A DNA stretch of 64,000 bases from Deltaproteobacteria bacterium (GCA_034670305.1 JAXMNT010000001.1:192001-256000), one strand, 5' to 3'. Shown: positions 1,860-17,951, counted from the first letter of the stretch. Notes: generated by a model not told the origin, from the letters alone. Translations and numbers: made by a program.

Positions 1860-3191
1860 ATGTTCCGTTTGGGTTGGCCGTGGTGGGAAGCCGCCCCTGT
1901 GTCCGTGCTGCCTGTGTGCGTGCTGCCTGTGTGCGTGTTGGCGTGTGTTCTCCTGGCCTGCGGATCCACCGAGCCACCAAGCAGCGACCTCGCCCCCTCC
2001 GTCGAGCCCGTGGAGGCCGTGGAGCGGTCGTATCCCGACTCCGACTACGGCCGCGCGCTCCGCGACTCCGATGTTCGGCTCGCGGATCTTCGGACCCGGC
2101 TCGACACCCCGGGCGCGCTTCACCGCCAAGCGTACGTCGCCGCGTTGCTGGATCGGGCCCGGCTCGTTGGCGGGGTCACGGACTACGCGGCCGCCCTCGC
2201 CGCGCTCGAAGATCTCCAGGCGCAATTGCCACGCGAGCAGTGGCCGCACAGCATCGCCGCGGGCGTCTACGCGTCGGTGCACCGGCTCGACGCAGCCGAA
2301 GACGCGCTCGACGGAGCGCAGCGCCGGATCCTCGGCGCCAACCACGCCGCGATCGCCGCCGCCCGCGGCGACCTCTACCTCCACCGGGGTCTCTTCGAGG
2401 TGGCCCACGCGCTGTTCGAGGAGTCCGAGCAGCGCAGCCCGCACGGCGGCGCCGCGAGCCACGTGGCCTACTACCACTGGCAACTCGGCGACTACGCGGC
2501 CGCCGACGCCGAGCTCGATCGCCTCACGCTGTTGCGCGGCCGCCATCTGGCGTACCTCGAGTTCACCCGCGGCATGCTCGACTTCGCGCAGGGCCGACAC
2601 GGCGAAGCGCTCGCGCACTACGAAGCGGCGGACGACGCGTTCTCCGGTTGGCCGCTCGTCTGGGAACACATGGCCGAGGTGCACCAAGCCGAAGGCCGAC
2701 TCTTCCTCGCGGAGGCGCTGTACCGCCGGGTCGTCGAACTCACCGAGAGCCCAAGCGCGATGACGATGCTCGCGCTCTGCGTGGACGCCGACGAAGCCGC
2801 CTACTGGTTGCGGCGCGCGGAGCAACTGCATCGACGGGACCTCGAGCTCTTGCCCGAAGCGTCGGCCGGCCACGCGCTCGACTACTTCCTGCACCACGGC
2901 GACCCCGCCGAAGCGCTCGACCTCGCCATCCGCAACCACGGCTTGCGACCGGGCGGCGAAGCGACGGTGAAGTTCGCCCAAGCGCTGTGCAACGACGGCG
3001 CCTGGCACCTCGCCGCAGCCCGCCTCGACCGGCTGCACGCCACCACCCCCTTCCGCTCGCCAGAGAGCCTCGCCACCGCCGCCCTCGCCCACCGACAGCA
3101 GGGCGGCGAGGCCCGCGCCGCCGAGCTCGAATCCGAAGCCAACCAACTGCACCCGGACGCCATCTCCCTCGTCGCCTGGCTCACCCCCTGA
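1860..3191 (+). CDS. Tetratricopeptide-repeat lipoprotein (start uncertain)
   Basis: LLAC lipobox; repeated Ala-rich helical TPR-like units; TPR genes often neighbour DUF4331 genes. Confidence 0.7.
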   Translation: MFRLGWPWWEAAPVSVLPVCVLPVCVLACVLLACGSTEPPSSDLAPSVEPVEAVERSYPDSDYGRALRDSDVRLADLRTRLDTPGALHRQAYVAALLDRARLVGGVTDYAAALAALEDLQAQLPREQWPHSIAAGVYASVHRLDAAEDALDGAQRRILGANHAAIAAARGDLYLHRGLFEVAHALFEESEQRSPHGGAASHVAYYHWQLGDYAAADAELDRLTLLRGRHLAYLEFTRGMLDFAQGRHGEALAHYEAADDAFSGWPLVWEHMAEVHQAEGRLFLAEALYRRVVELTESPSAMTMLALCVDADEAAYWLRRAEQLHRRDLELLPEASAGHALDYFLHHGDPAEALDLAIRNHGLRPGGEATVKFAQALCNDGAWHLAAARLDRLHATTPFRSPESLATAALAHRQQGGEARAAELESEANQLHPDAISLVAWLTP

Positions 3192-3288
3192 GAACGAAGT
3201 CGCGGTCGCAGTGGAGCGGGGGTTCTGCGACGGAACTCCCCCCACTCCCCCACAACTCCCCCGAACTCTCCCCAAAACGGTTTCGGAT

Positions 3289-3448
3289 TCGGCAGCGGCA
3301 GTGGCAGCGGCAGCGGCAGTGGCAGTGGCACCAGCAGTCACAGCATCAGCGACAGCCCATGCTCTCCTTCGGAGTCGCGCGGTTTGTAGCCTCTCCTTCG
3401 GAAGTCGGCTCCTTCGTCCTTCGGACTCGGAGTGACCTGGGGGTGGGC
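3289..3448 (+). repeat. 160-bp direct repeat, copy 1 (pairs with 4080-4239)
   Basis: Manual alignment: 158/160 identical, mismatches at 3308/4099 and 3359/4150. Confidence 0.95.
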
Positions 3449-3626
3449 TTGCTGGCTCGGCGGGATCTTGATGGTGGCGGAGTGCTCGGGCGCGTCAAGG
3501 GTGCCTTCGGCCCCAGCCTTCGGAAGGCTGGCTTCGCCCTTGACCCGCCCTCCGCTCTCCACCGGGGGCGCACGGGGTGCGCCGCCGAGCAATGTCGCTC
3601 TGGTGTGTGGCGCGTTGGAGGCTGTG
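3385..3626 (+). other. Conserved structured non-coding leader, copy 1
   Basis: Homologous to 8855-9100 and 14424-14657; nested inverted repeats 3455-3463/3582-3590 and 3494-3501/3537-3544. Confidence 0.85.
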
Positions 3627-3938
3627 ATGATTGTTCTCGAATCTTGTTTCGTTCTCGTTGGTGAGTTGCGCGGGGTGCTGGCGGCTGTTTCTCGCCGGGA
3701 CCGTTCGCTGGGTGACCAGATGCGGCGGGCGGCTCAGTCCGTCGTTCTGAACTGCGCCGAAGCGAAGAACGCGCGGGGCAAGCGGAGCGTGGACCGCTTC
3801 TCCATCGCATACGGCGAAGCGAGTGAGCTGAAGGCGGCTCTTCGGTTGGTGCGGTTGTTCGGCTACGCGGAGGTTGGCGAGGAGGTGATGCGGCGGTGCG
3901 ACGAGGTCTGCGCGATGTTGTATCGGCTCAGTCGCTAG
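3627..3938 (+). CDS. Four-helix-bundle protein (23S rRNA IVP/TIGR02436-like; Avd-like fold)
   Basis: 103 aa; GGAGG RBS; L.DQMRRAA.SV.LN.AE and F.IA.GE..EL motifs; ~60% identical to 14658-14972 by manual count. Confidence 0.85.
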   Translation: MIVLESCFVLVGELRGVLAAVSRRDRSLGDQMRRAAQSVVLNCAEAKNARGKRSVDRFSIAYGEASELKAALRLVRLFGYAEVGEEVMRRCDEVCAMLYRLSR

Positions 3939-4001
3939 ACCGGCTGCGAGGCCCGCGCGAGTCGCGGGCCTCGGCGTCGGCAGCGCCAGGGGCAGCGGCT
4001 T

Positions 4002-4120
4002 TCGGCGTCGGCTTTGGCGTCGGCCTCGGCTTCGGCCTCGGCGTCGGCCTCGGCGTCGGCTTCGGCGTCGGCCTCGGCATCGGCAGCGGCAGTGGCAGTG
4101 GCAGCGGCAGTGGCAGTGGC
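4002..4120. repeat. Hexamer microsatellite (TCGGCN)n then (GGCAGY)n
   Basis: Period-6 tract visible directly. Confidence 0.9.
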
Positions 4121-4239
4121 ACCAGCAGTCACAGCATCAGCGACAGCCCGTGCTCTCCTTCGGAGTCGCGCGGTTTGTAGCCTCTCCTTCGGAAGTCGGC
4201 TCCTTCGTCCTTCGGACTCGGAGTGACCTGGGGGTGGGC
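4080..4239 (+). repeat. 160-bp direct repeat, copy 2
   Basis: See 3289-3448. Confidence 0.95.
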
Positions 4240-4340
4240 CTCCGTCGGATCAGGCGGCACGGCCTGCCCCAATCTGTCACTCCCCCGCCCTCGGTTTCGG
4301 CCGCCCTGACCGCGCCGCGTCAGGTGCTATCTTCCGGCCT

Positions 4341-7300
4341 ATGGCTTCACTCTTTCATGGGGGCGCGGCGCCTCGCTTCGCTGCTTCCCACGCCTTCGCG
4401 TCAAACTCGGGACGCTTGATCCCCGCGCTGCTCCTGTGCTCGTTGCTCCTCGCCTGCGGCGACGACGACACCACGCCCATCGATGCGGGCCCGAGCGACG
4501 CCGCCGATGTCGGCATCGACGTGCCGCTCCCCGACGGCCCGCGCGGCGACGTCCTGCGCATCCCGGAATCCGAGCGCCGCGAGCTGCCGCTGAACGACGA
4601 AGTCTACGTGCTTCGGACCGAGACCCACGTGCCGCACGTGTACGCCTCGAACGAACACGACCTCCGCGTCGTGCAGGGCTTCTTGATGGCCCGCGACCGC
4701 TACTTCCAGATCGAAGCCGGCCGCCGCCTCGGCCAAGGCACCCTCAGCGGTCTGGTCGGAGACGCAGCGCTCGCCGCTGACATCGGCGCCCGCACCCAGG
4801 GCATGACCCGGGTCGCCGACCGCTTGGCCGCGAGCCTCACCCCCGAACAACGCGAAGTCGTGCAGGCCTTCACCGACGGCGTGAACGCCTACGTTCGGCT
4901 CGCCAAAGCCCGCGGCATCGCGGCCCCGAGTGAGTTGACCATCGCCGCGCCCGTCTTTGGTGCGACCAGCGCCGGCGCGCTGATGGAAGAGCTCTCGCTC
5001 GAAGACCTCATCGCCTTCGCCGCGGTCCCCGTCTACCAGCTCGGCTGGGAAGCCAAGGACCTGCGCTACGCCGAAAGCGAAGCCTTCGTCGCGGACGTCT
5101 TCACCGGCGCGGAGACGGATGCGGAGCTCAGGCACGATGGTGCGGTCCAGGACATCTTCCAGAACGTCGACCCGATCAACGACATCGTCTCCGCCAGTGG
5201 CTTCGGGCTCGAAGAGGGCACGTCGTCGTTCCTGCCGAGCTTCGGCCCCCCCCGCGCCCCGGCCCGCTTCGTCGCGCCCCAGGCGATGCCGGTGGAGCGC
5301 ACCATGCTCGACCGCTTGCGCGCCCAGACGGACCGCTTCGAACACACCCTGCGTGGTCCGGTCGACGGAGACTTCGGGTCCAACGCCTGGGCCGTCGATG
5401 GCGCGCACTCGGAAGGCGGCGCAGCGCTCTTGGCCGGCGACGGACACCTCCCGCTCTCGATCGCGCCGCTCTTCTACCAGCTCGGTCTCGACACCAGCGT
5501 CTTCGGCGAAGGCGCCGACAACGACATCACCTTGATGGGCCTCTTCTTCGCCGGCATCCCGCACATGGCGGTCGGCACCAACGGCCGCGTCGCGTGGTCG
5601 CAGACTTACCTGCGCGGCGACGTCACCGACTGGTACGCCGAGGAGCTCGTGCTCGACGCCGAGGGCATGCCGGTGGCGACCCGTTTCGAGGGCAGCGACG
5701 AACCGCTCGTGCGCATCGAGGAGTCCTACGAGATCCGCAACGTGCCGGGCCTCGGCAGCGTCGGCCGCACCGAGACCATCGCCCGCTTCGAGACCTTCGA
5801 CGGCCGGCCGATCACCGCGATCGAAGGCCGCCCCGCCACCGCGGACACCGTGCCCGGCGACGGCGAGTCGCTCGTGAACATCGGCGGCGAATACGTCATC
5901 CCGGAGGACGTCGACGAAGACGGAACCATCAGCGCGGTCAGCTTCGACTTCGCGGGCTTCGACGTCTCCAACATCCTGCGCGCGCTCGAAGGCTTCAACG
6001 ACTCGAACACCGTCACCGACTTCCGCAACGCCACCCGCGAGCTCGTCACCTACGCGCAGAACCTGGTCGCGGCCGACATCGAAGGCGACGTCTACTACGG
6101 CAGCTACAACGCCATCCCCACCCGCGAGTACCTGGAGCGCACCGAAGCGGGCGGCCCGTGGACCCCTGGATCCGATCCGCGCAGCTTGCTCGACGGCACC
6201 CGCTACCGCGGCTTCGAGATCGTGCTCGACGAAAACGGCATGCCGGACGAGTCGATGTGCGCAGGCGATACCTACCGCTGCCTCGTGCCGTTCGATGAGT
6301 GGCCCGCCGCGCTCTCGCCCGACCGCGGCTTCGTGCTGACCGCGAACCACGACATCGCCAACATCACCACCGACGGCGACATCTTCGACGACCCGTACTA
6401 CCTCGGCGGCGCCTGGAACAACGGCTTCCGTGGCGCGTCGATCACCGCGGGCATCGTCGCGCTCGGCACCGGCGCGACCGCGGCGGCGATGAGCGAGCTG
6501 CAGAACGACCACCACTCCGTGCTCGGGCCGCTCTTCGTGCCCTACCTGCTCGAAGCGATCGACGAAGGCCAGCGGCTCGCTGCCGAAGAAGCGATCACGC
6601 CTTCCGAGATGCGGCTGCTCGCGATTTACACCGCCAACCAAGCCGCGCTCGATGAAGTCGAGACCCGGCTGGCCGCGTGGGTGGCCGGCGGCGCCGAAGC
6701 GGCGTCGGGTGTGGACACCTTCTACCACTCCGCCGATGGCGAAGCGGACGACAGCGTGGCGACCATGATCTTCAACGAGTGGTGGAAGAAGGTCATCGCC
6801 GCGACGTTCGAAGACGAAGGCATGGCGCCCGCGTTCGGGCCCGACGTCTCCACCAGCATCACCCGCGCGATGTACGACCTCTACCGCGGCCGCGGCGCCG
6901 GCAACCCCGCGGGGCTGCAGTCCTGGAACGTAGCGACGTCGGAGTCGGTCTTCTTCGACGACCTCGGCACGGTGGAAGTCGAGTCGAGCCACGAAGTCTC
7001 GCTCTCCGCGCTGACGACCGCGCTCGCCGCGCTCTCGGCCGACCCCGATCCCGAAGTGCCGGGCGTCGGCGGCTTTGGTTCCACGGACATGGACGACTGG
7101 CGCTGGGGCCTGCGTCACCTCGTCAAATTCGAGTCCCTGGTCGCGACCTTCGTCGGCACCGACCCGGCCTTTGCGCTCTTGGCCAACGGCTTCTCGATCA
7201 CCCCCGAGACCCTGCCGCTCGCCGAGGACCTCGAGGAGACCGACCCGCGCGCGACCCTTCCGTGGTTCCCGCGCCCGGGCGACCTCTTCAACGTCGACGC

Positions 7301-7559
7301 CGGCCACTACGATCCCTTCGCGGACGATTACTTCTATGCAAACGGCCCGGTCATGCGCATGGTCGTGCGCCTCGAAGAAGGCAACATCTCTGGCGTCAAC
7401 ATTCTCCCGGGCGGACAGTCCGGATTGACCGACTCCGACCAGTTCGACGACCAAGCCCAGCTCTGGCTCGCGAACGAGACGGTGCCGCTGCGTTTCCACG
7501 TGGCGGACGTCGTCGCAGGTGCGACCTCCCGCGAGACCTACGCCCCGATGGGCGACTGA
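4341..7559 (+). CDS. Penicillin acylase family (Ntn-hydrolase) lipoprotein
   Basis: VPHVYA and QGF.MARDR.FQ motifs; GSNAWAV beta-chain nucleophile; AGDGHL; TANHD; C-terminal PGGQSG. Confidence 0.9.
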   Translation: MASLFHGGAAPRFAASHAFASNSGRLIPALLLCSLLLACGDDDTTPIDAGPSDAADVGIDVPLPDGPRGDVLRIPESERRELPLNDEVYVLRTETHVPHVYASNEHDLRVVQGFLMARDRYFQIEAGRRLGQGTLSGLVGDAALAADIGARTQGMTRVADRLAASLTPEQREVVQAFTDGVNAYVRLAKARGIAAPSELTIAAPVFGATSAGALMEELSLEDLIAFAAVPVYQLGWEAKDLRYAESEAFVADVFTGAETDAELRHDGAVQDIFQNVDPINDIVSASGFGLEEGTSSFLPSFGPPRAPARFVAPQAMPVERTMLDRLRAQTDRFEHTLRGPVDGDFGSNAWAVDGAHSEGGAALLAGDGHLPLSIAPLFYQLGLDTSVFGEGADNDITLMGLFFAGIPHMAVGTNGRVAWSQTYLRGDVTDWYAEELVLDAEGMPVATRFEGSDEPLVRIEESYEIRNVPGLGSVGRTETIARFETFDGRPITAIEGRPATADTVPGDGESLVNIGGEYVIPEDVDEDGTISAVSFDFAGFDVSNILRALEGFNDSNTVTDFRNATRELVTYAQNLVAADIEGDVYYGSYNAIPTREYLERTEAGGPWTPGSDPRSLLDGTRYRGFEIVLDENGMPDESMCAGDTYRCLVPFDEWPAALSPDRGFVLTANHDIANITTDGDIFDDPYYLGGAWNNGFRGASITAGIVALGTGATAAAMSELQNDHHSVLGPLFVPYLLEAIDEGQRLAAEEAITPSEMRLLAIYTANQAALDEVETRLAAWVAGGAEAASGVDTFYHSADGEADDSVATMIFNEWWKKVIAATFEDEGMAPAFGPDVSTSITRAMYDLYRGRGAGNPAGLQSWNVATSESVFFDDLGTVEVESSHEVSLSALTTALAALSADPDPEVPGVGGFGSTDMDDWRWGLRHLVKFESLVATFVGTDPAFALLANGFSITPETLPLAEDLEETDPRATLPWFPRPGDLFNVDAGHYDPFADDYFYANGPVMRMVVRLEEGNISGVNILPGGQSGLTDSDQFDDQAQLWLANETVPLRFHVADVVAGATSRETYAPMGD

Positions 7560-7696
7560 CGCGATTGAAGTTTCACCCGCACCACCCTCGAACTGGCAAT
7601 GTGACGGCAACCCGCGTGCGGGTGCCCACCACGTTGTGTCGGGCACAGCTGTGAAGGCAAAAGTCCGCGGCGCGTAGGCGCGCGGCATTGGGGACC

Positions 7697-8707
7697 ATGA
7701 CCGAAGCCACCACCACCTCCGACCTCGAGGTCGCCGACTCCGAGCTGCTGCTCCGCCTCACCGGACCGAACAGCGCACACCTCAAAGCCCTTGGCTCCGA
7801 GTTCGACGTCGCGATGGGTTTGCGCGGCGACACGATCCGCATCCAAGGCGACGCCGCCAAAGTCGCGGTCGTCGAACGGGTGCTCGCGGAGCTGCTCGGC
7901 GTGCTCGCCCAGCGCACCCTGAGCGCCAACGAGATCGCGCGCGCCGCCCGCACCGTGGCCGACCACCCGGAGATGCACCTGCAGGAGCTCTTCGACGACG
8001 TCGTCCTGCGCACCGGCAGCAAACGCGTCATCTCCCCGAAGGGCGTCGCCCAGCAGTCCTACGTCGCGTCGATCCGTTCGCACGACGTGGTCTTCGGCGT
8101 GGGGCCGGCCGGCACCGGCAAGACCTACCTCGCGATGGCCATGGCGGTCGCGGCGCTTCAGGAGCGCTCCGTCAAACGCATCATCCTCACCCGGCCCGCG
8201 GTCGAAGCCGGCGAGAAGCTCGGCTTTCTTCCGGGAGACCTCGCGGAGAAGGTGAACCCCTACCTGCGTCCGCTCTACGACGCGCTGCACGACATGATGG
8301 ACGACTCGAAGGTCGCTGGCCTCATGGAGCGCCAGACCATCGAAGTCGCGCCGCTCGCGTTCATGCGGGGACGCACCCTGAACGACGCGTTCGTGATCTT
8401 GGACGAAGCCCAGAACACCACCCAGGAACAGATGAAGATGTTCCTGACCCGCCTCGGCTTCCGCTCGCGCGCGGTGATCACCGGCGACATCACCCAGGTC
8501 GACCTGCCCGGCGGCCGCCGCAGCGGACTCGCGGACGCGCAGTACTTGCTCGAAGGCATCGAAGGCATCGCGTTCTGCAAGTTCTCCGACGCCGACGTCG
8601 TACGTCACCCGCTCGTGCAAAAAATCATCCGCGCCTACGACGCACGAGACGCGAAGCGCTTCGCGGCCAGAGAAGCCAAACGCGCGAAGCGCGAAGAAGC
8701 CGAGTAG
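7697..8707 (+). CDS. phoH: PhoH family ATPase
   Basis: [59 protein letters not shown]. Confidence 0.95.
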
Positions 8708-8744
8708 CGCCGTAGCTAGGCCGGTAGGGGAGGAGTAGGGCTGT

Positions 8745-8856
8745 AGAAGCAGCTGCAGACGCGGTGGCACAGCAGAAGCAGCGGCAGAAGCAGCGACAGA
8801 AGCAGCGGCAGGAGCAGCGACAGCGGCAGAAGCAGCGACAGCGGCGGAAGCAGCTG
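8745..8856. repeat. Hexamer microsatellite (GCAGAA/GCAGCG/ACAGCG)n
   Basis: Period-6 tract directly upstream of leader copy 2. Confidence 0.85.
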
Positions 8857-9100
8857 TAGCCTCTTCCTTCGGAAAGTCGGCTCCTTGCAATCCTTTGGAT
8901 TTTGGGAACACCCCAATTGGTTGGGCTTGCTGGCTCGGCGGCAGATTGATGGTGGCGGAGTGCTCGCCTGCGTCAAGGGTGGCCTTCGGCCCCCAGCCGA
9001 TGCGGCTGGCTTCGCCCTGGACCCAGGCTCCGCTCTCCACCGGGGGCGCTCCGCGCCGCCGAGCAATGTCGCTCTGGTGTTTGGCGCGTTGGAGGTCCTG
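8855..9100 (+). other. Conserved structured non-coding leader, copy 2
   Basis: Strong similarity to 3385-3626, with compensatory stem changes. Confidence 0.85.
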
Positions 9101-9190
9101 ATGATTGTTCTCATCCGCTCGTACGCCGAAGGTGAGGGCGCCCGAGAGGTCTACCGGGACATCGCCGGCTTCCTGCTCGACTCGCGCTGA
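9101..9190 (+). pseudogene. Truncated four-helix-bundle gene (MIVL) fused to an unrelated tail
   Basis: ATGATTGTTCTC matches the start at 3627 exactly, then diverges; 29-aa ORF. Confidence 0.6.
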
Positions 9191-9206
9191 GGCGCCGATC
9201 GTGGAC

Positions 9207-11042
9207 TCACTCGGTGGGTGAGGGGTTCTCGATCGCGAAGTTGATCACATAGGGTGGGTCGAAGACTTCCGGCACGCCGCCGGCCACGTCCCGAACGCCG
9301 CCGGTCACGAAGAGCGAGCCGGCGATGCGGGTGTTGCTCGATTCGGCGGCCAAGACGAAGCCTTGGTTGAGCAGGAAGTTCGGCGCCCCGTCGATCTCCA
9401 CGAAGAGGTTGGCGCCGGGCCCGAGCGGGTAGACGCCGCGTGGCCAGGAGACCTCTTCGATGGGCGTGTCCATCGCGGCGACGGCGATCTGGAGCGTAAG
9501 CACCGCGGGGTACGAAGCGTCCCCGAACCCCGAAGTCCCGGAGGCGTTCATGACGAAGACCTTGGCGCCTGGGCCGGTCCCGAGGTACGCGCGCACATCG
9601 CTGACGTAGGGCGAGTCCGCGGACCCGTCGCGACGGAACGTGAAACCAACGGCCGTGCCCTCGAGGTTCACGTCGCCCACGCACTCGGCCACGTCTTCGG
9701 TGGAGATGAGACCGAGGTCGCGCGCGAAGTGCAGCTTCGTGTACAGCGCCGCGAACCGAGAGGGCACACCCATCGTGTCCATGTGGGCGCGCATCACCTG
9801 GCAGCCGATGTCCTTGCCGGTCACGCGCTCGTCTGCGTAGACGGGTCCCATGATGCCCCACGCCACCATCTCTGCGATGTCGTCGGTGAGGCGGGTGGCG
9901 CCGTACCGGGACATGGCACCCCCGAGCGCGACCGCCTGATCGGTGCCGGCCGTGAGTGCTTCCTCCTCGCTGCCGGCCAATCGGGTCGCCAGCCGATCCC
10001 AGCGCGAGGGGTGCGGTGCCGCCCAGCCGAGCTCCACGAACTCTTCGTGCAGCCGCTCCCATTCCTGTACGAGTCCCCGCTGCAGCCGCACGTGTCGGAT
10101 GGTGGTGCGCGCCGTGCTTCGCCAGGACTCGGCCCACATGCCTCCGAAGTCTCCTGGGTGCCGTCCCTCGACGCCGAGCAAGAAGGTCGCCGCGTGGGTC
10201 GCTTCATGCAGCAGCGTTTGCTGTGTGCCGAGTTGGCCGGACAGGCCCGGCAGCATGACCCGCGCGTTCAGAACGACGATGTCACCTTCGGACTGAGAGA
10301 CGAAGCCAGCCACCCCGCTGGCGCGTTCCATGAATGCGATTCGGGAAACGGAGTGACAGAGCAGGCGCGGCATCCGGTTCAGGCCGGCCTCCACCGCGGT
10401 GCGCAGAGCCGGGCTCGCGGTGACGAGCACGTCGCCGTCGTGGAGCACCCCGCGGAGCCGGTCGCCGTCCGTCTCGTCCATGATCTGGACGTGTGCGCAC
10501 GCTGCGTTCGAGCGGCTGAGTGCTTCGGTCCGGGGCGCGACGATCGCGGCGGGGGTCGCCATGGTGACGAGCGTTGTCCCGGTGTCGTCCACGAGCGCGA
10601 TCTCGGTCGCGTCGAGGTTGCCGCGCAAGTAGCCAACGGCGCTGACCACGCCTTCGATGAGGGACTCCTCGTGGTAGGGCAGGCCGCTATCGTCGTAGTG
10701 CATCGACCGGGTGTCGGCGAAGTGCAGGAGCTGCCCGTCGACCTCGACGCCAGCGCTGTCGCGCGCAACCAGGAGCACCTCGCCGGTGGCGGGACCGGGC
10801 GGGATGCCGACCTCGGACAGCACGTCTACGCTGTCGACGTCACCGAGGGTGAAGATGCCGTCGGTTTCTCGAAAGACGGTGACCCGCCAGATGGGTTCCT
10901 TCGGTCCCGAGAGATCGAAGTACGGCGACTCACCGCACCCCGGGGTGGCGGCGCAGGCTTCTTCGTAGGTCTCGAACTCAGCGGGTTCGGTATCGCCGCA
11001 GCCGATGGTGAATGCCAAGAGGACGCAGAGTGATCGGAGCAT
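9207..11042 (-). CDS. Lipoprotein with HEXXH motif, putative zinc metallopeptidase
   Basis: Signal peptide ending TIGC; LLHEATH; downstream YGAT..TDDIAE. Confidence 0.65.
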   Translation of the reverse strand: MLRSLCVLLAFTIGCGDTEPAEFETYEEACAATPGCGESPYFDLSGPKEPIWRVTVFRETDGIFTLGDVDSVDVLSEVGIPPGPATGEVLLVARDSAGVEVDGQLLHFADTRSMHYDDSGLPYHEESLIEGVVSAVGYLRGNLDATEIALVDDTGTTLVTMATPAAIVAPRTEALSRSNAACAHVQIMDETDGDRLRGVLHDGDVLVTASPALRTAVEAGLNRMPRLLCHSVSRIAFMERASGVAGFVSQSEGDIVVLNARVMLPGLSGQLGTQQTLLHEATHAATFLLGVEGRHPGDFGGMWAESWRSTARTTIRHVRLQRGLVQEWERLHEEFVELGWAAPHPSRWDRLATRLAGSEEEALTAGTDQAVALGGAMSRYGATRLTDDIAEMVAWGIMGPVYADERVTGKDIGCQVMRAHMDTMGVPSRFAALYTKLHFARDLGLISTEDVAECVGDVNLEGTAVGFTFRRDGSADSPYVSDVRAYLGTGPGAKVFVMNASGTSGFGDASYPAVLTLQIAVAAMDTPIEEVSWPRGVYPLGPGANLFVEIDGAPNFLLNQGFVLAAESSNTRIAGSLFVTGGVRDVAGGVPEVFDPPYVINFAIENPSPTE

Positions 11043-11103
11043 GCGTCGGAGTGTACGGCAGGAAGGGAATGCCCGGACCTGCCGCACGCGCTATCAAGCC
11101 CGC

Positions 11104-12843
11104 ATGGGTGCGCGTTCTCTTATCGTTGGGCTCGACGGGGCCGATGTGTCGGTCCTCGAGGAGCTTGGGCCGCGGCGGCTCCCGAACCTCTACGCGCACA
11201 TGCAAAACGGCGCTTGGGCGCGGCTGGAGAGTGTGCGGCCGCCCGCGACGTTGCCGAACTGGACCACCTTTCTGACCGGCATGGATCCGGGGCGGCACGG
11301 GGTCTTCGACTTCACCACCCGCGATGGGTACGGGGTTCGTTTCACGGCCGGCACGGTGCGGGAGACGCCGACTTGGATCGCGCGGCTCGATGCGCTCGGC
11401 AAACGCTGCGCGTGCGTTGGGTTTCCTGGGACTTGGCCGCCTGAGCCGCTGGAGCATGGGATCTTCATCAGCGGGTGGGATGCGCCCGTCGCGTTTGAAG
11501 CGGACCGTTCGTTTGTGTGGCCGGAGGTCCTGTTCGACCGGATCGTGCAGCGGTTCGGACCGATGGACTTCGACGTGGGCGAGTTCGATGCCGACGCGGA
11601 AGGCTGGCACGATGGGCTGGCGGACTTGCTGGTCTCGAAGATCGAACGCAAGACCGCGCTCGCCCAGTGGCTGATGGACCCGTCGTCGGGCGGCGCTTCC
11701 GAAGACAGTACTGCGCTTCCCACAGACAGCACGGACTGGGACGTGTTCGCGTTCTACTTCGGCGAGAGCGACACCGTCGCGCACCACCTCTGGGCCCACC
11801 ACGATCCGGGCTCGCCGCGCCATCCGAGCGGCGCTTCGGCGCGCAGCCGCGCGGGGCTCGGCAAGGTCTACGAAGCGCTCGACCGCGCGGTCGGCGCGCT
11901 GGTTCAGGCCGCGGGCAAGGATGTGGAACTCACCCTGGTGAGCGATCACGGCTCCGGTGGGTCGAGCGACAAAGTGCTCTACCTCAACCGCGCGCTCGAG
12001 CAGGCGGGGCTGTTGAAGTTTGCGCCCACTTCGATCCTGCCGTGGAGCCGCTTGGCCAAAGACGCCGCGCTCACGCTCTTGCCGCCTCGGCTCAAAGAAC
12101 GGCTCTTCCGCGCGTACGGCGCGCGCCTGCCGAGCTGGCTCGAATCGCGCGCCCGGTTTGGCGCGATCGACTTTGGCGCCACCGTCGCGTTCAGCGATGA
12201 GCTCAACTACTTCCCGGGCGTGTGGCTGCACCTCGCCGGTCGCGACCCGCTCGGTTTCGTGCCCGAAGAAGAACGCGATGCGCTCGCCCGCCGGGTGAGC
12301 GACGCGCTCTACGACTTGCGGGATCCGTGGTCCCGCGAGCCCGTCGTCGAAGCGGTGCACCGGCGCGAAGTGATCTTCGACGGCGACTTCGTGGAGCGCG
12401 CGCCGGATCTCTTGCTCGACTTCCGCCTCGACCACTCGGAGAGCCCGCGCGGCTACAGCTACAACCTGATGCCCACCGCGAGCGCGCCCCGCGGCATTGG
12501 CGCGTGGCGCCGGCTCGCGGAATCCGAGCACCTCGGCCGCAAAGGACGCAGCTTGCCCGGCAGCCACCGCAACCACGGCTTCTTCGCGGCCTCCGGACCG
12601 AGCGTCGACGCGGTCGGGGAAGTGGACGCACACATCGCCGACGCTGCCGCCACGGTGCTCGCGCGGCTCGGCGCGGAGATCGACCCCGTGATGCGCGGCC
12701 GCGTGCTCTTTGAAGTCTTGCGCGACACTGCGGGCACGACCGAAGCGCTGCCCGCTGCCCGGGTGGCCAAGGGCGGCACGGGCGGTGGGGACGGCGAAGC
12801 CCGGGTCGAAGCCCGGCTGCGTGCGCTCGGCTACATCGACTGA
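11104..12843 (+). CDS. Alkaline phosphatase superfamily / type I phosphodiesterase
   Basis: IVGLDGA, PP.T.P.WTTF.TG.DPG.HGVFDF, VSDHG, C-terminal RLRALGYID. Confidence 0.9.
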   Translation: MGARSLIVGLDGADVSVLEELGPRRLPNLYAHMQNGAWARLESVRPPATLPNWTTFLTGMDPGRHGVFDFTTRDGYGVRFTAGTVRETPTWIARLDALGKRCACVGFPGTWPPEPLEHGIFISGWDAPVAFEADRSFVWPEVLFDRIVQRFGPMDFDVGEFDADAEGWHDGLADLLVSKIERKTALAQWLMDPSSGGASEDSTALPTDSTDWDVFAFYFGESDTVAHHLWAHHDPGSPRHPSGASARSRAGLGKVYEALDRAVGALVQAAGKDVELTLVSDHGSGGSSDKVLYLNRALEQAGLLKFAPTSILPWSRLAKDAALTLLPPRLKERLFRAYGARLPSWLESRARFGAIDFGATVAFSDELNYFPGVWLHLAGRDPLGFVPEEERDALARRVSDALYDLRDPWSREPVVEAVHRREVIFDGDFVERAPDLLLDFRLDHSESPRGYSYNLMPTASAPRGIGAWRRLAESEHLGRKGRSLPGSHRNHGFFAASGPSVDAVGEVDAHIADAAATVLARLGAEIDPVMRGRVLFEVLRDTAGTTEALPAARVAKGGTGGGDGEARVEARLRALGYID

Positions 12844-12854
12844 GGTCCTTCCGC

Positions 12855-13922
12855 ATGCGCATGCTGCACATCGCCTGTCTGCCGATGCCGAGCCCGCAGG
12901 GGACGCAGGCGGTGCTGCGCACGATGACCGAAGCGCTCGCGCGGGCGGGGCACGAGACGCATCTGCTGACCTATGGGTACGGCGCGGGGGCGGCGCTCGA
13001 GGGGGTGCTGCACCATCGATGTGGAAGAAGTGGCAGGGGCTCGATGCGCTCCGGTCCCTCGTGGTCGAAGGTGCGGGACGACGTGTTCATGGTCGCGTCC
13101 ACCCGCCGGCTCGTGCGTCGCCTGCAGCCCGAGGTCGTGGTTGCGCACAACGTGGAAGCCGCGCTCGTCGTGAACACGGCGACTTCCCTCCTGGCCGTCC
13201 GTCCCCGCACTCTCTACTTCGCGCACACCCGCTTCGATCTCGAGCTGCCGACCTACGGCCGCGTCGGCCGTGCGGGCGCCGTGTTTGGTCGCGCGCTCGA
13301 CACGCTCGCTTGCCGGCTCGACCAAGTCGTCGCGATCTCGCCGGCGCTGGGAGATCATCTCGGCGCGCCGGTCGTGCTGCCACCGTGGCCAGTTGCGGCG
13401 CCGATCTCGGACGACGAACGTCGCGCGGCGCGCACAGCGCTCGGTCTCGCCGAAGACGAACCGGTGCTGCTCTACGCGGGCAACCTGGACGGCTACCAGG
13501 GCTGGGAGGTTGCGGCCGCCGCGGCACAGGCGGTGGGTGCGACGTGGCTCGTCGCAACTGAGTCGGACCCGGCGCCGCTGCGGCGCTTCCCGCATCTGCG
13601 GATGCGCTTGGCCACCGAAGCGAATCGAAGACGCGCGCACGCGGCCTGCGATCTCGCGCTCGTGCCGCGGCGCACCCCGGGCGGACTGCCGATCAAGCTG
13701 CTCGATGCACTTGCGCGGGACGTGCCGGTGGTGGCGAACCGGCGCGCGCTCGCGGGGCTGAGTGCGGCCGGCGTGGAGGTGTGCGTGGACGATGACGTGG
13801 ACGCGTTCGCGGCGGCGATTCGGCGCGCGTTGAGGGAGCCGCCGAGGGGGGGGTGGGCGTGGGTGGCGGAGACGTTCGGGGAGGACGGGTTCGTGCGGGG
13901 GTTGTGGGAGAGCGTGTCGTAG
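12855..13922 (+). CDS. Glycosyltransferase family 4 (GT-B)
   Basis: LARAGHETHLLTY, YAGNLDGYQG, GLPIKLLDALA..VPVV. Confidence 0.85.
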   Translation: MRMLHIACLPMPSPQGTQAVLRTMTEALARAGHETHLLTYGYGAGAALEGVLHHRCGRSGRGSMRSGPSWSKVRDDVFMVASTRRLVRRLQPEVVVAHNVEAALVVNTATSLLAVRPRTLYFAHTRFDLELPTYGRVGRAGAVFGRALDTLACRLDQVVAISPALGDHLGAPVVLPPWPVAAPISDDERRAARTALGLAEDEPVLLYAGNLDGYQGWEVAAAAAQAVGATWLVATESDPAPLRRFPHLRMRLATEANRRRAHAACDLALVPRRTPGGLPIKLLDALARDVPVVANRRALAGLSAAGVEVCVDDDVDAFAAAIRRALREPPRGGWAWVAETFGEDGFVRGLWESVS

Positions 13923-13934
13923 CGGCCCGCGTGT

Positions 13935-14420
13935 GGGCTGTGTTGCTGTTCGCTGTTCGCTGTTGCGGTTGCTGACTCTGACGCTGACGCTGACGCTGAC
14001 GCTGTTGCTGATTCTGATTCTGATTCTGATTCTGACTCTGATTCTGACTCTGATTCTGATTCTGACGTCGCAGCCGAAGCCGAACCCGAAGCCGAAGCCA
14101 CATCCGAATCCGAATCCAAAGCCGACGCCGAAGCCGACGCCGAAGCCGAAGCCGAAGCAGACGCCGAAGCAGACGCCGAAGCCGATTCCGCCACCACGAC
14201 CCCCACCGCTACCGCGACCCCCACCGCTACCGCGACCCCCACCGCTACCGCGACCCCCACCGCTACCGCTACGCGACCCCCACCGCTACCGCGACCCCTA
14301 CCGCTACCGCTACCGCTACCGCGACCGCCTCCGCCTCCGCTTCCGCTTCCGCTTCCGCGACCGCTTCCGCTTCCGCGACCGCTTCCGCGACCGCTCCGCT
14401 TCCGCGACCAGGACCGCACC
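13935..14420. repeat. Compound microsatellite: (GCTGTTC), (TGACGC)n, (TGATTC)n, (GCCGAA)n, 18-mer CCACCGCTACCGCGACCC, (CCGCTT)n
   Basis: Visible directly; ends at leader copy 3. Confidence 0.95.
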
Positions 14421-14423
14421 GCT

Positions 14424-14657
14424 TGTAGCCTCTCCTTCGGAGTCGGCCTCATCCTCTCCTTCGGAATCGGATTCGGGTCCGATGGGGCTGGGGTTGTGCC
14501 CGGCGGGAGGTCAAGCGTGTCGTCTGGCGTGCCAGGCCTCAAGGGGGCCTACGGCCCGGCGGGATGCCCGCCGCTTCCTTGACCCCTGACCCGCCAGACG
14601 ACGGCGGCCTGCGGCCGCCGGGCATGTCGCTCGGTCGTCGTCACACAGGGGTCTCCG
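14424..14657 (+). other. Conserved structured non-coding leader, copy 3 (divergent)
   Basis: Shares TGTAGCCTCTCCTTCGGAGTCGGC, TCAAGG/CCTTGA and ATGTCGCTC; same stem topology with different stem sequences. Confidence 0.8.
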
Positions 14658-14972
14658 ATGATCGTTCTTCAAACTTCCTTCGAACTCGTGCGTTCGCTGC
14701 GCGCTCAGGTACTGCCGCTCGTACGCAAACACGACGCTTCGCTAGCGTCACAGATGCAGCGCGCGGCGCAGTCCGTGGTTCTGAACATCGCAGAGGCTCG
14801 GCAGGCGCGAGGACTTCGTTGTCATGACAAGTTCTCGATTGCCTACGGAGAGTGCAGCGAGCTGAAGGCTGCGATTCAGCTCGCTGAGGTCTTTGGGTAC
14901 ATCGACCTGGACGCGACGCTCCTCGATCGGTGCGACTACGTCTGCGCGATGCTGTACAAGCTCAGCCGTTGA
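14658..14972 (+). CDS. Four-helix-bundle protein, paralog 2
   Basis: 104 aa; QMQRAAQSVVLNIAEA and FSIAYGECSELKAA. Confidence 0.85.
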   Translation: MIVLQTSFELVRSLRAQVLPLVRKHDASLASQMQRAAQSVVLNIAEARQARGLRCHDKFSIAYGECSELKAAIQLAEVFGYIDLDATLLDRCDYVCAMLYKLSR

Positions 14973-15053
14973 GGTTCGGCCGGCGTCCAAGGGGCGCCGG
15001 CCCCTGAGCCAAGGGCGGAGCGTCCGCCGGACGCTCCGCTTCGCGCCCGCCCA

Positions 15054-17951
15054 CTACTTCTTCTTCTTGCGGGCGAGGAGTTGTTCGGCCAGCGAGCTTG
15101 CGGGCGGGGCGGCGGGTTCCGGCTTCTCATCGGCCTCGGCCGCTGGCGGTGCCGCTGCCGCTTGTTTGTCGGTGGAGCCGAGTGGCTTGTTGCTGGGAGA
15201 CAGCACCGCGGTGTCTCCGTCCGCGGCGCCGGCGAGGGCTTCTTTGATCTCGTCCGCGGTCTCTTCGTTGCGGGCGCGCTTCTTGGCTGCGATCGCCATG
15301 GCGGCGCTCGATTGCAGCGCTTCCGCGCGCCGGGTCTTCTTGCGGCGGAAACGTTTCGGGATGAGGCGCGCGAACATGCCGGCGGGCAACACCAACCGGC
15401 GCATCGCGACGCCGAGCAGGAAGAAGCACAGCGCGCTCATCAGGAGCGGGGGCCAGAGCGGGTCGTAGGCGTAGGTGGGGGGCGGGCGGTCGCTGAAGAC
15501 TTCGCTCAGGTCCGTGCGGACTTCGCCACCGGTGAGCGCGGCGACTTGGCCGAGCAGCGCGTGGTTGGTTCCGTCGCCGCGCAGCTCGTCGCCGCTCGGG
15601 CGCACCATGCCGGCGCTGCCGACCATGCCGCGGTCGTCTTCGGTGACGGTGACGAGGTAGGGACCCGGCGCGTTCGCGTCGAACGTGCCTTCGTAACGGC
15701 CGGCTCCGGTCTGCTGCAGGTCGACGTCCACTCGGCGACCGCCCGGCGCGGCGACGGTGCCACCGAGGTCGAGGTAGTTGCGGTACTGGCCGGCGTCGCT
15801 GACCGCTTCGACCCGCACCCGGCCGATGCCGTTCTCGATGCGCAGACTGACCTGGGCGTCGCGCCGTTCGGGGGCGCGGGCGAGGTCGCGGGCGAGCTGG
15901 GAGAAGAGCTGGGAGTACCCGGCCCATCCGAGCCACGGTTGCCCGAACTCGGCGCCGACGTCGGTGGTGAAGACGCCGGAACGGCCGACGCCGTGCTGCC
16001 ACACCGCGAGCAACGCGTCTTCGTCGTCCTTGGCCCGCAGCAGCACCGTCGCGCGGTTGCGCGCGTTCACCACCGAGTAGCCGCCGAGCGCGGGTGCGCT
16101 TCCGAAGTCGATGCCGCGGGTCGCGGCGCCCGGCATGATCGGCTCGGCGCGGAACGGCTCTTCCACGATCGCGGCGCGCGAGGCTTCGATGGTCTCCTGG
16201 GTGAAGATGCGCGGCAGCTGCGTCATGTCGTCGACGATGTAGAAGCGGCCGCCGCCGAGTCGGCTCAGGTGCTCGAGTTCCGGTGTGTCCGGGCCGCGGC
16301 CCATGGAGACGATCGAGGTGGTGATGCGGTCCTGCATCGCGCGCCGGACCATCTGGCGGGTGCCGGTCATGTTCTCGGAGTCGTTGCCGTCGCTGAAGAG
16401 CAGGAAGTGTTTGAGCTGCGTCTGCTCCGCGCGGAGCGCGTCGTACGAAGCCTCCATCGTGATGTCGACGAAGATGCCGCCGCCGCCCGGTTGCGCGCGC
16501 CGGACCGTGCCGGCGATCGACGCGGGCGAGTCCACGCTCGTCATCGGCTGCGTCCACTCCACCATCGTGTCCACGTGCATGACGCCGACTCGGTCCATGG
16601 GGCTGAGCAACATCGCCGAGCGCGCAGCGGCTTCGTTCGCCATCTCGAGTTTGGTCACGCCGGGCGAGGCCTCGGCCATCATCGAGCCGCTCTTGTCGAT
16701 GGCGATGATCATCGCGAGGGAGAGCCGGTCGCGGCGCTGCCGCAGATCGAAACGCGCCGGCAGCACTTCTTCGACCGGGGTGTAGGCGTAGCCACCGAGC
16801 CCGAACGAGTCGCGGGCGCCGACCATCAAGAGGCCGCCGCCGAGGTCGCGCACGTACGAAGCGAGCGCGTCCATCTGGTCGCTCGTGAAGGCGCGCGCGT
16901 TCACGTCGCTCAAGACGACCAGATCGTAGGTGGCGAGTTCGCCGAGATCGATCGGGAAGCGGGCCGCGCGCCGGAGTTCGGCTTCGAGTCCCGAGCCCTG
17001 GATGGCGGCGGTGAGCGCCTGTGCTTCGGAGACTTCGCCTGCGGCGACGAGCACCCGGCTGCCCCCGAGCACCCGCATGAACGCGCCGCCTTCGTTGTTG
17101 CGGCGGCCGAGATCGTGGCCAGCGGTGAGCGGCTCGACCAGCACGTCGTAGCGATGCACGCCCGAGTCCGGCGCTTCGTCGCGCATCACCAAGACGTCGC
17201 TGCCCGCGTCGAGCACGGTCTCGGTCTCCGCGAGGGTGGTGCCGTCGCGCATCACCCGGACCCGCGCGGGGGTGCGGTGGGTGGCGCGGGTGACGATGCG
17301 GATCTCGATCGGTTCGCCGGGCCGCGCGGTCGGCGGCACGCGGACCCGTTCCACCGCGACCTCTGGCTCCGGCGCGCGTTCGATCGGCAGCACGTCGACG
17401 ACCACGCCACGGCCCGCTGCCAGCGACGCGGCCGCCAGCGCGTCGCCGCGGGTCTCCACTCCGTCGCTGACGACGACCACGCGGCCGGTGTGTTCCGCGG
17501 GGATGTCGGCGAGCGCGCGCCGGATCCCGGCGGCCAGATCGGTGGCGTCGCGAGGCACGCTGGCGCGCAGTGCGCCGACCGGCGGTCGCGGGGAGGGCAA
17601 GAGCTCCGTGGTCGCGCTGGCGCCGAAGACCACCACGCCGGCTTGGTCGCCGGTCCGCATCGTCTCGATCGACCGACGGATGCTGCGCATCGCATCGTCG
17701 GCGGTCTGGCTCGCGTGGTCGATCGAGCGGCTGCGGTCGACGGCGAAGACCACCGCGAGCCGGTCGATGCGGCGGCCGAACTCGAGCCCTGCGATGGCGA
17801 GCGTCGCGGCGATGCCCGCGAGCGCCATCACCACTTGGATCTTTCGTCGGCGCGATCCGAAGTCGTTCGGGAGCCGGGTGAGCCGCCATACGAGCAGCAG
17901 CAGCAGCGGGGCCGCCAGCGCGAGCAGCCACGGTTGGGAGAGACGCATCAT
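15054..17951 (-). CDS. Membrane protein with two VWA domains and a GATase-like middle domain
   Basis: MIDAS-like DRSRS and DKSGSM; VSDGVET; YVRDLGGGLLMVG..SFGLGGY; N- and C-terminal TM segments. Confidence 0.85.
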   Translation of the reverse strand: MMRLSQPWLLALAAPLLLLLVWRLTRLPNDFGSRRRKIQVVMALAGIAATLAIAGLEFGRRIDRLAVVFAVDRSRSIDHASQTADDAMRSIRRSIETMRTGDQAGVVVFGASATTELLPSPRPPVGALRASVPRDATDLAAGIRRALADIPAEHTGRVVVVSDGVETRGDALAAASLAAGRGVVVDVLPIERAPEPEVAVERVRVPPTARPGEPIEIRIVTRATHRTPARVRVMRDGTTLAETETVLDAGSDVLVMRDEAPDSGVHRYDVLVEPLTAGHDLGRRNNEGGAFMRVLGGSRVLVAAGEVSEAQALTAAIQGSGLEAELRRAARFPIDLGELATYDLVVLSDVNARAFTSDQMDALASYVRDLGGGLLMVGARDSFGLGGYAYTPVEEVLPARFDLRQRRDRLSLAMIIAIDKSGSMMAEASPGVTKLEMANEAAARSAMLLSPMDRVGVMHVDTMVEWTQPMTSVDSPASIAGTVRRAQPGGGGIFVDITMEASYDALRAEQTQLKHFLLFSDGNDSENMTGTRQMVRRAMQDRITTSIVSMGRGPDTPELEHLSRLGGGRFYIVDDMTQLPRIFTQETIEASRAAIVEEPFRAEPIMPGAATRGIDFGSAPALGGYSVVNARNRATVLLRAKDDEDALLAVWQHGVGRSGVFTTDVGAEFGQPWLGWAGYSQLFSQLARDLARAPERRDAQVSLRIENGIGRVRVEAVSDAGQYRNYLDLGGTVAAPGGRRVDVDLQQTGAGRYEGTFDANAPGPYLVTVTEDDRGMVGSAGMVRPSGDELRGDGTNHALLGQVAALTGGEVRTDLSEVFSDRPPPTYAYDPLWPPLLMSALCFFLLGVAMRRLVLPAGMFARLIPKRFRRKKTRRAEALQSSAAMAIAAKKRARNEETADEIKEALAGAADGDTAVLSPSNKPLGSTDKQAAAAPPAAEADEKPEPAAPPASSLAEQLLARKKKK

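Follow-up and report, generated by a model that had tools for sequence, protein, structure and literature searches.

The window analysed here comprises 64,000 nt of a Deltaproteobacteria bacterium (JAXMNT010000001.1:192001-256000), and all coordinates are counted from its first letter. It carries three copies of a cassette, all on the + strand, that are built around a small gene of the TIGR02436/PF05635 family of four-helix-bundle proteins. Copies 1 and 3 are intact and copy 2 is decayed. Each cassette follows the same order, running from a hexamer tract through small hairpins, a multi-helix leader of 130-160 nt and a Shine-Dalgarno-like site to the gene (103/104 aa), which is followed by a GC hairpin and often by a second tract. 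An earlier note on this DNA had described three + strand copies with this fixed order, each lying behind an unrelated, co-oriented host gene, and all the elements it named are indeed present where it placed them. Pfam assigns the upstream neighbours to TPR (copy 1), PhoH (copy 2) and glycosyltransferase family 4 (GT4; copy 3), which are mutually unrelated and share the orientation of the cassettes. The two intact proteins are 60.6% identical, as the approximate 60% given in the note had indicated.

In copy 1, the upstream hexamer tract (GGCAGY)n, which belongs to the A-type class CAGNNN, occupies 3279..3356. It is followed at 3357..3448 by the small hairpin module (CTCCTTCGGAG; TGTAGCCTCTCCTTCGGAAGTCGGC; CGTCCTTCGGACTCGGAG), which also occurs alone elsewhere in the genome; such modules consist of two or three small CCTTCGG-type hairpins, one of which bears TGTAGCCTC. 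The leader core, a nested structure that measures 129-139 nt in the window copies, lies at 3453..3591 and includes a P1 closing helix, a long P2-P3 stem, the hairpins P4a and P4b, and P5 (55.3 bits and E 6.5e-10 with the covariance model R1, described below; minimum free energy (MFE) -82.8 kcal/mol, z -3.2). A short tail at 3592..3626 carries a Shine-Dalgarno-like GGAGG ahead of the start codon and is more divergent than the core (Jukes-Cantor (JC) distance 0.23 vs 0.068). The gene itself, of subfamily A, encodes 103 aa at 3627..3938 (PF05635 E 6.3e-14; TIGR02436 57.9 bits, cut-off 24). Past the stop codon, a GC-rich hairpin at 3948..3972 (GAGGCCCGCG-CGAGT-CGCGGGCCTC), seen in nine of the ten A copies compared, overlaps with its 3′ arm the downstream tracts at 3967..4130, which consist of (GGCGTC/GGCCTC/GGCTTC)n and then (GGCAGY)n and represent the A-type downstream class TCGGCT/CCTCGG.

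The core and gene of copy 1 are flanked on both sides by a direct repeat of 171 nt (3278-3448 and 4069-4239, 96% identical). The second repeat unit, 4069..4239, is thus a partial duplicate of the first and constitutes a 'solo' 5′ module, with tract and hairpins and without core or gene. Its 3′ end coincides exactly with the position where the core would start. In a ~91%-identical relative (public run X6, contig depth 3.6), a contig joins 3491 to 4243, before an amidase gene, and this joint looks like a remnant resembling the solo module that extends ~43 nt longer into the core. No public contig aligned to the window bridges a clean empty site, and the joints other than 3491-4243 are mosaics of paralogous copies.

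Copy 2 has an upstream tract of (CAGNNN)n at 8745..8856, a hairpin module at 8857..8918 and an A-type leader core at 8931..9065 (R1 E 7.1e-10; 98.7 bits with a second model, R2), followed by a decayed gene that is cut to 29 aa (9101..9190). Copy 3 starts with tracts arranged in CTGAYK, GCCGAA and ACCGCT/TCCGCT blocks (13940..14417), continues with a hairpin module (14419..14495) and a B-type leader core (14496..14624; R1 132.8 bits; MFE -88.7 kcal/mol, z -5.2), and carries a subfamily B gene of 104 aa at 14658..14972 (PF05635 E 1.4e-15; TIGR02436 60.3 bits). A GC hairpin 3′ of its stop codon (GGCCGGCG...CGCCGGCC, 14978..15002) is conserved in the B copies compared.

The cassette recurs throughout the genome (Polyangiales, 7.93 Mb in 105 contigs, labelled G000). 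A tblastn search places 37 gene loci in it, and the cassette family numbers ~40 in all, divided into three subfamilies, with copy 1 representing A, copy 3 representing B, and C being ~55% identical to both. The 103/104-aa open reading frame (ORF) is intact in 33 of the 37 copies with a start motif. Model R2 yields 38 leader matches, 34 of them directly 5′ of one or other of the 37 genes; of the remaining four, one precedes the truncated copy in the window and three are solo. Among the three genes that have no R2 match, the leader is interrupted or diverged in two and absent in one. The fixed-order module is thus a genome-wide entity. Co-orientation with the upstream gene, which holds for the three window copies, weakens to a tendency across the genome (23 of 32 cassettes by a rough longest-ORF method), and the strict rule that a cassette follows a co-oriented gene was dropped.

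PF05635 profile matches in the genome total 47. More distant members of the family at C14:16486-16722, C15:131727-131960, C1:298705-298866 and C83:18949-19137 all lack a leader or tract within 900 nt (4/4), which indicates that tract and leader belong to the cassette clades and not to every gene of the family. We also note a solo B-type leader at G000:C18:54466-54700 that is followed by (CTGCTT)n and then by just the last codons of the gene and the terminator hairpin; here a tract seems to have taken the place of the gene body.

The leader is a real, conserved and covarying structure. Taken singly, representative leaders of the three subfamilies fold into one architecture, in which the P1 closing helix encloses a long irregular P2-P3 stem tipped by two hairpins in A and B and by three in C, with the P5 hairpin adjoining the 3′ strand of P1. 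Their folding energies lie 3.2 to 5.2 standard deviations below those of dinucleotide shuffles. Model R1, built from eight B leaders alone with a hand-written structure, recovers all A and C leaders over the full length of the model (E 1e-7 to 1e-11). Across 33 aligned leaders, standard pairs fill 92.2% of cells, compared with 74.9% in shuffles, of which none in 500 reaches the observed value, while partners slid by 1-3 columns pair in 27-45%; double-sided changes are found in 28 of the 44 pairs. Since a model trained on B leaders finds those of A and C, and since pairing exceeds both the shuffles and the slid partners, the pairing is far beyond chance, and the covarying leader proposed in the earlier note stands.

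This structure has no counterpart in Rfam 15. Scans of the entire window at gathering score, and of 3000-15300 at E up to 1, both give no match, so that an explanation of the leader by an Rfam family, which the earlier note had kept in view, does not apply. A coding leader is ruled out, as the A leaders vary from 135 to 139 nt by differences that are not multiples of three. An upstream ORF at ATGTCGCTC is likewise ruled out: its ATG is present in 7/13 A and 3/8 B copies with a leader and is thus not conserved among the genome copies. Some unpaired stretches of the leader are conserved. Mosaics also occur among the cassettes. Two B leaders bear an A-type P4b hairpin, and a leader on another contig agrees with that of copy 1 at 100% of positions over 201 nt, though the proteins differ.

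The encoded proteins are members of the TIGR02436/PF05635 family with the fold of Avd, the accessory protein of diversity-generating retroelements (DGRs), as had been suggested from the window alone. The two intact window proteins score 52.5 and 57.9 bits against PF05635 (cut-off 33.8), and the C proteins, at 44.4 bits, also exceed the TIGR02436 cut-off given above. An AlphaFold2 model of the copy 1 protein (pLDDT 97.1) matches the S23-family proteins 2rld (TM 0.87) and 2gsc (TM 0.80) in Foldseek with a probability of 1.00, and matches Avd both on its own (4dwl, TM 0.73) and in the DGR ribonucleoprotein (RNP) (8ub7, TM 0.74), with a sequence identity to Avd of 13-14%. A profile match to 2gsc is found at E 1.2e-13. 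Both 2gsc and 2rld contain five chains in their depositions, and the cassette protein is probably pentameric. The cassette proteins are basic (pI 8.4-9.4), and Avd in the DGR complex is described as a pentameric barrel with positive charge, 'similar to S23 ribosomal proteins', that contacts a defined Avd-binding RNA element (10.1101/2023.10.23.563531). The resemblance of PF05635 to Avd is also mentioned in PMC10053308. The family motif GxxRxxxSxxxNxxE, as given in PMC3936711, is read as QxxRxxxSxxxNxxE in A and B, which keep four of its five positions (R34, S38, N42 and E45 in A), while in the C proteins A and L replace its S and N. None of the A, B and C proteins matches a PADLOC defence model at E up to 0.001.

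Rates of substitution indicate that the resident copies are old and that each has been retained by purifying selection after duplication. The within-subfamily values are dS 0.45 and dN/dS 0.13 for A, 0.53 and 0.09 for B, and 0.63 and 0.06 for C, and the pooled pN/pS over sixteen independent nearest-neighbour pairs is 0.11 (one pair is identical). It is this pN/pS of 0.11, together with a dN/dS of ~0.1, that argues for retention by selection. The leader core is constrained as strongly as the protein, with JC distances of 0.068 (A) and 0.095 (B) that are near the level of non-synonymous sites. Tail and 3′ flank have distances of 0.13-0.43, the 3′ flank alone giving 0.35 (A) and 0.43 (B). A recent burst of a decaying transposon is ruled out by the dS of 0.45-0.63 and the purifying selection.

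Hexamer tracts are common in this genome, where 1077 of them (at least 36 nt, with period 6, 12 or 18) cover 167,855 nt or 2.1% of the sequence, and GCCGAA/TTCGGC accounts for 43% of the 922 tracts with a callable dominant unit. With tracts this common, their plain co-occurrence with cassettes means little. The tracts nevertheless belong to the cassette and not to the background, as three observations attest. Their motifs are specific to subfamilies on both sides of the gene: in A, (CAGNNN)n precedes the gene and (TCGGCT/CCTCGG)n follows it; in B, these positions are taken by (CCGCTT/ACCGCT)n and (CCGCTG/CCGCTT)n, respectively; and in C, the upstream tract is (GCCGAA/GCCGAT)n. The cosine of motif spectra within subfamilies is 0.46 upstream and 0.62 downstream, compared with 0.011 between subfamilies, a difference that none of 5000 label permutations reaches, and only ~3% of all tracts in the genome are of the A upstream class. 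Relatives in which tracts form 0-0.5% of random 14-40 kb samples still have them directly beside genes of the cassette family (0% in G012, G013, G033, G036, G004 and G014; 0.1% in G024, 0.13% in G002, 0.24% in G008, 0.3% in G011 and 0.46% in G007). Finally, in a survey of 80 loci from metagenome-assembled genomes (MAGs) of Polyangiales/Myxococcota, 59 of which have a full upstream flank, a period-6 tract lies within 400 nt upstream of the gene at 48/59 loci, or at 34/43 when one heavily represented genome is left out. Tract coverage at these loci is 23-35% between -370 and -70, against 0-3% farther upstream. The inclusion of a microsatellite in the cassette by the earlier note is borne out by the subfamily-specific motifs on both sides and by the tract-poor relatives.

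Within the genome itself, 33 of the 37 genes have a tract within 600 nt upstream, and the tracts, 60-480 nt long, are internally heterogeneous. Inverted arms, as in a foldback of the kind that intervening sequences (IVS) form, are ruled out by the larger share of direct matches, the flanks of 36 copies sharing 561 7-mers in direct and 301 in inverted orientation; an exception is one locus of a relative (L043), where the arms, (GCGTCN)n and (NGACGC)n, are inverted. The idea that the number of cassettes drives the tract load of a genome is unsupported, since G012, with 31 PF05635 matches, shows no tract at all in a 40 kb random sample. A role for the tracts as unstructured spacers finds a weak effect only, with z of +1.1 to +1.4 and 56-67% of tracts above zero. 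We further note that the contigs of public sequencing runs break at tracts, among them those of runs X1 and X3, which contain the organism. A literature search on hexanucleotide repeats and microsatellites in myxobacterial intergenic DNA found nothing on bacteria among the papers listed.

Leader and gene are also found together in other genera, and the arrangement of tract, leader and gene is repeated around this family in many genomes of the Polyangiales. R2 gives 13 matches in 5 of 40 relatives' genomes, four from the same family and one from another family of the order, so the leader is confined neither to the window loci nor to this genome, as the earlier note had allowed that it might be. 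A protein relative of 105-128 aa starts within 50 nt after the core in eight of the nine loci inspected, with tracts upstream, and the ninth runs off its contig. The sequences of P1 and other helices differ strongly between genera. With filters off, weaker leader matches are found directly before family genes in G012, G013 and G036. In every genus seen, the leader has a fixed orientation to the gene and lies 7-50 nt before its start codon. A scan of another 150 genomes from the phylum gave no R2 match at E up to 1e-4, under strict filters with only 20 candidates scored per genome.

Of the 40 relatives, 27 have PF05635 genes as such, and both high copy numbers and convergent pairs are frequent. 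Such pairs (L049, L050, L055-L057 and L035) lie 45-110 nt apart, and each partner has its own upstream tract. In one relative's genome the genes are of two types, and two tract motifs, CCGAAG and CAGTCT, go with them. Polyangiales MAGs (L122-L182) also show another, simpler type of leader, in which a hairpin of ~20 bp comes after a (CACTGG)n tract, ~110 nt upstream of the gene; the 3′ arm of this hairpin contains the Shine-Dalgarno sequence AAGGAG, and many compensatory changes separate the genomes.

Comparison with relatives shows that this lineage has acquired cassettes at host-gene 3′ ends. No family gene lies within 1.5 kb of phoH in any of 13 relatives' loci, and the penicillin-amidase-phoH pair is kept in the closest relative (83% PhoH identity) and in one other, with no cassette and almost no tracts. 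Similarly, neither cassette nor tract follows the GT4 orthologue in any of nine relatives' loci, five of which keep the phosphodiesterase-GT4 pair. These relatives are from other genera, and the empty sites are therefore defined at the level of the genus and not as precise junctions. A syntenic cassette in all relatives, which the earlier note had set against its own reading, is thus not what these loci contain. At one locus of a relative (L193, G012:C1:986424-990416), the GT4 and phoH orthologues are convergent and ~60 nt apart, with no cassette. In the window (7688-13922), phoH and GT4 are on the same strand, 4 kb apart, each with a 3′ cassette. The cassettes accordingly sit at a rearranged junction.

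The cassette carries no enzyme that would account for its dispersal. Its sole ORF is the 103/104-aa gene, with no transposase or reverse transcriptase (RT) encoded, and the window as a whole is free of both, as was already apparent from the earlier note. No terminal inverted repeats are found in the flanks of 36 copies, where no systematic search for target duplications was made. An insertion sequence or a miniature inverted-repeat transposable element (MITE) is ruled out, there being no transposase and no inverted ends and the copies differing by dS of 0.45-0.63. The genome has three RVT_1 genes outside the window (C23:86418-87011, C10:168437-169069 and C67:18832-19467; L046-L048). In PADLOC, the one tested is identified as a retron RT of type XIII (E 1e-155); its neighbours include SWIM and HEAT-repeat genes, and no Rfam retron RNA is found in the RT loci. 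A DGR partner is ruled out, as the three RTs lie elsewhere and the one tested is of retron type XIII. Direct repeats between 3000 and 15300 consist of tracts and cassette parts only, no search having been aimed at pairs of template and variable repeats (TR/VR). The proposal in the earlier note that the unit spreads as a module with a catalytic enzyme supplied in trans finds no support in these data, since the copies are old and selected (dS 0.45-0.63, pN/pS 0.11) and the RTs are retron-like and elsewhere.

Three known systems invite comparison. IVS elements of 23S rRNA, which bear such an ORF in Leptospira too, resemble the cassettes in having a small ORF of the same family within a compact, highly structured, insertion-like element. 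They differ in sitting in a helix of 23S rRNA, whereas the cassettes follow TPR, phoH and GT4 and Rfam finds no rRNA match in the window; in having a stem that encloses the ORF and serves as an RNase III substrate, whereas here a five-helix domain lies upstream of the ORF and P1 closes the leader only; and in having inverted repeats as flanks, whereas the cassette flanks are not inverted. The IVS of Coxiella burnetii that encodes S23p is regarded as selfish and horizontally acquired, and its ORF is reported to be decaying (PMC4990558), unlike the cassette ORFs, which are under strong purifying selection. In a literature search that excluded supplements, the only elements in print with such an ORF were rRNA-borne IVS (PMC4990558), alongside scattered notes on the family. 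With the Avd of DGRs, the cassette protein shares the fold and the basic character, Avd being a pentamer that binds a structured RNA element; it differs in its sequence and in the lack of a DGR-type RT beside the cassettes. Ribosomal-protein leaders, which are autoregulatory and bound by their own protein product, are alike in that a structured element immediately precedes the Shine-Dalgarno site and start codon of a gene for a small basic protein and is conserved with that gene. They differ from the cassette leader, which occurs in ~40 dispersed copies with repeat tracts and has no Rfam match, and we know of no autoregulatory leader with such a distribution.

Taken together, the cassette is best read as a Polyangiales variant of the IVS-like, ORF-bearing, repeat-flanked cassettes. 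For the leader, we give about an even chance to the reading that it forms the 5′ leader RNA of the gene and pairs with the basic pentamer as its cognate partner, serving translation feedback or the assembly of an RNP. The leader would then be a putative 5′ untranslated RNA of the gene, and the basic, probably pentameric protein would bind the leader of its own message, so that it might feed back on its own translation or assemble on its RNA. Models for such binding would be provided by Avd holding a structured RNA element in the DGR RNP and by the ribosomal-protein leaders. Dispersal would be slow and without an element-encoded enzyme, and host recombination or template switching through the tracts would be its most economical route.

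Several points weigh against this autoregulatory or assembly role. The transcription of the leader, and the ends and strand of its transcript, are predicted from the DNA, and the binding of protein to leader is presumed by analogy with the Avd-binding RNA. Because leader and gene are physically linked, the matching of their subfamilies is uninformative on recognition. The covariation comes from three subfamilies and a few relatives and so represents few independent events, in an alignment fitted to the model. The reverse strand of the leader folds equally well, and wobble counts (14 GU vs 21 AC) favour neither strand. A sigma-70-like promoter scan of copies 1 and 3 finds no site. The predicted pairing of the start codon, at 0.67-0.83, is ordinary for such GC-rich RNA, and sequestration of the start codon was dropped as a distinctive feature. 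The role of the tracts, which are only slightly less foldable than shuffles, is left unexplained, and simple autoregulation likewise leaves unexplained why ~35 copies have been retained by selection.

Other explanations capture parts of the same evidence. The match of the fold to Avd and the DGR RNP also fits a stand-alone or trans-acting RNA scaffold that, with the pentamer, would form an RNP recruiting an enzyme encoded elsewhere, such as an RT or nuclease, the cassette being the accessory half. Avd binds a structured RNA segment and is itself required by its RT (10.1101/2023.10.23.563531); the leader, with five helices and a multi-branch loop, is more elaborate than most protein-binding leaders; and three RT genes are at hand in the genome. 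We consider such a scaffold unlikely, however, given that the RTs appear to be of retron type XIII, to judge by the one tested, and that none of them adjoins a cassette. No TR/VR-like repeat turned up, in comparisons that were not aimed at one, solo leaders are rare and decayed (3/38), and at least 35 accessory halves without a matching number of enzymes would be odd. A related view keeps the leader as an mRNA element and drops the protein as its ligand: an ordinary expanded paralogous family with a conserved 5′ untranslated region, in which a riboswitch-like or factor-dependent translational regulator senses something besides its own protein. The position of the leader, which in all cases immediately precedes the Shine-Dalgarno site and start codon, the conservation of some unpaired stretches, the purifying selection on every copy and the simpler hairpin of the (CACTGG)n Polyangiales subfamily, which buries the Shine-Dalgarno site and shows compensatory changes, would all be expected of such a regulator. 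The absence of an Rfam match even at E up to 1 speaks against it, as does a divergence among A, B and C in one genome that exceeds what riboswitch aptamers usually show, and it leaves unexplained both the fixed tract association and the insertion at the 3′ ends of unrelated genes; its chance of being correct is small.

The strand symmetry of the fold raises the further question of whether the leader acts as DNA. A folded single-stranded DNA site for recombination or replication, similar to attC, repetitive extragenic palindromic (REP) or HUH sites and moved by a recombinase in trans, would account for the equal folding of both strands and for wobble counts that do not favour RNA, for the dispersed cassettes with empty sites in relatives, for the exact coincidence of the solo 5′ module's end with the core boundary and for tracts that abut the structured parts on both sides, the tracts being by-products of that process or of fork stalling at so stable a structure. 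But the leader's fixed orientation and its distance of 7-50 nt from the start codon, kept in all genera seen, are a better fit to an mRNA element, and the copies are old and selected and not recently moved. No terminal repeats are found, and no recombinase candidate turned up beside the cassettes, where none was specifically searched for; we hold this explanation to be quite improbable. The tracts themselves might instead be the partner of the protein, which would read the subfamily-specific hexamer array either as DNA, in the manner of iterons or centromeres, or as RNA, in the manner of type III toxin-antitoxin systems, with the leader only tuning expression. The specificity of tract motifs on both sides, the retention of tracts while synonymous sites diverged by ~0.5, and their presence beside the genes even in tract-poor genomes agree with this idea. 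Hexamers are, however, much shorter than type III antitoxin repeats, the proteins match no PADLOC model, and lengths of 60-480 nt with internal heterogeneity resemble ordinary slippage. The genome moreover holds 1077 tracts but only ~40 cassettes, and the four more distant PF05635 genes inspected in it all lack a tract, which leaves this idea a slim prospect. A bolder combination, in which pentamer, leader and hexamer arrays would form one self-contained nucleoprotein module whose protein reads both its own RNA and the array and which makes or maintains the arrays, is in our view a doubtful proposition.

If true, such a single nucleoprotein module would provide the first function for the TIGR02436/S23p/IVP family. 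TIGR02436/PF05635 proteins are very widespread, and to our knowledge the Avd of DGRs is the sole member with a known role. A covarying leader that is strictly linked to the gene, with equal selection on both, offers a concrete lead to the function of this protein family, and the cognate and non-cognate combinations of A, B and C proteins and leaders form built-in controls. The leader, having no match in Rfam 15, is a candidate new RNA family. The short tandem-repeat arrays emerge as part of the biology of a gene family, and they link an enigmatic protein to unexplained bacterial microsatellites. New here are the non-inverted arms of 6-nt repeats, a leader that is both complex and covarying, an expansion to ~40 copies under selection that fall into three subfamilies, and tract motifs that are specific to each subfamily.

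Four leaders in the genome are interrupted by inserts, at C28 (~6990-7060), C68 (~36225-36300), C19 (~96400-96540) and C10 (~57100-57200) (loci L018, L027, L015 and L008, respectively). The inserts in the A copies on C28 and C68 and in the C copy on C19 are ~67-75 nt long and have a common GC-rich sequence, while that of the C copy on C10 appears different. The common insert of C28, C68 and C19 looks like a small MITE family.

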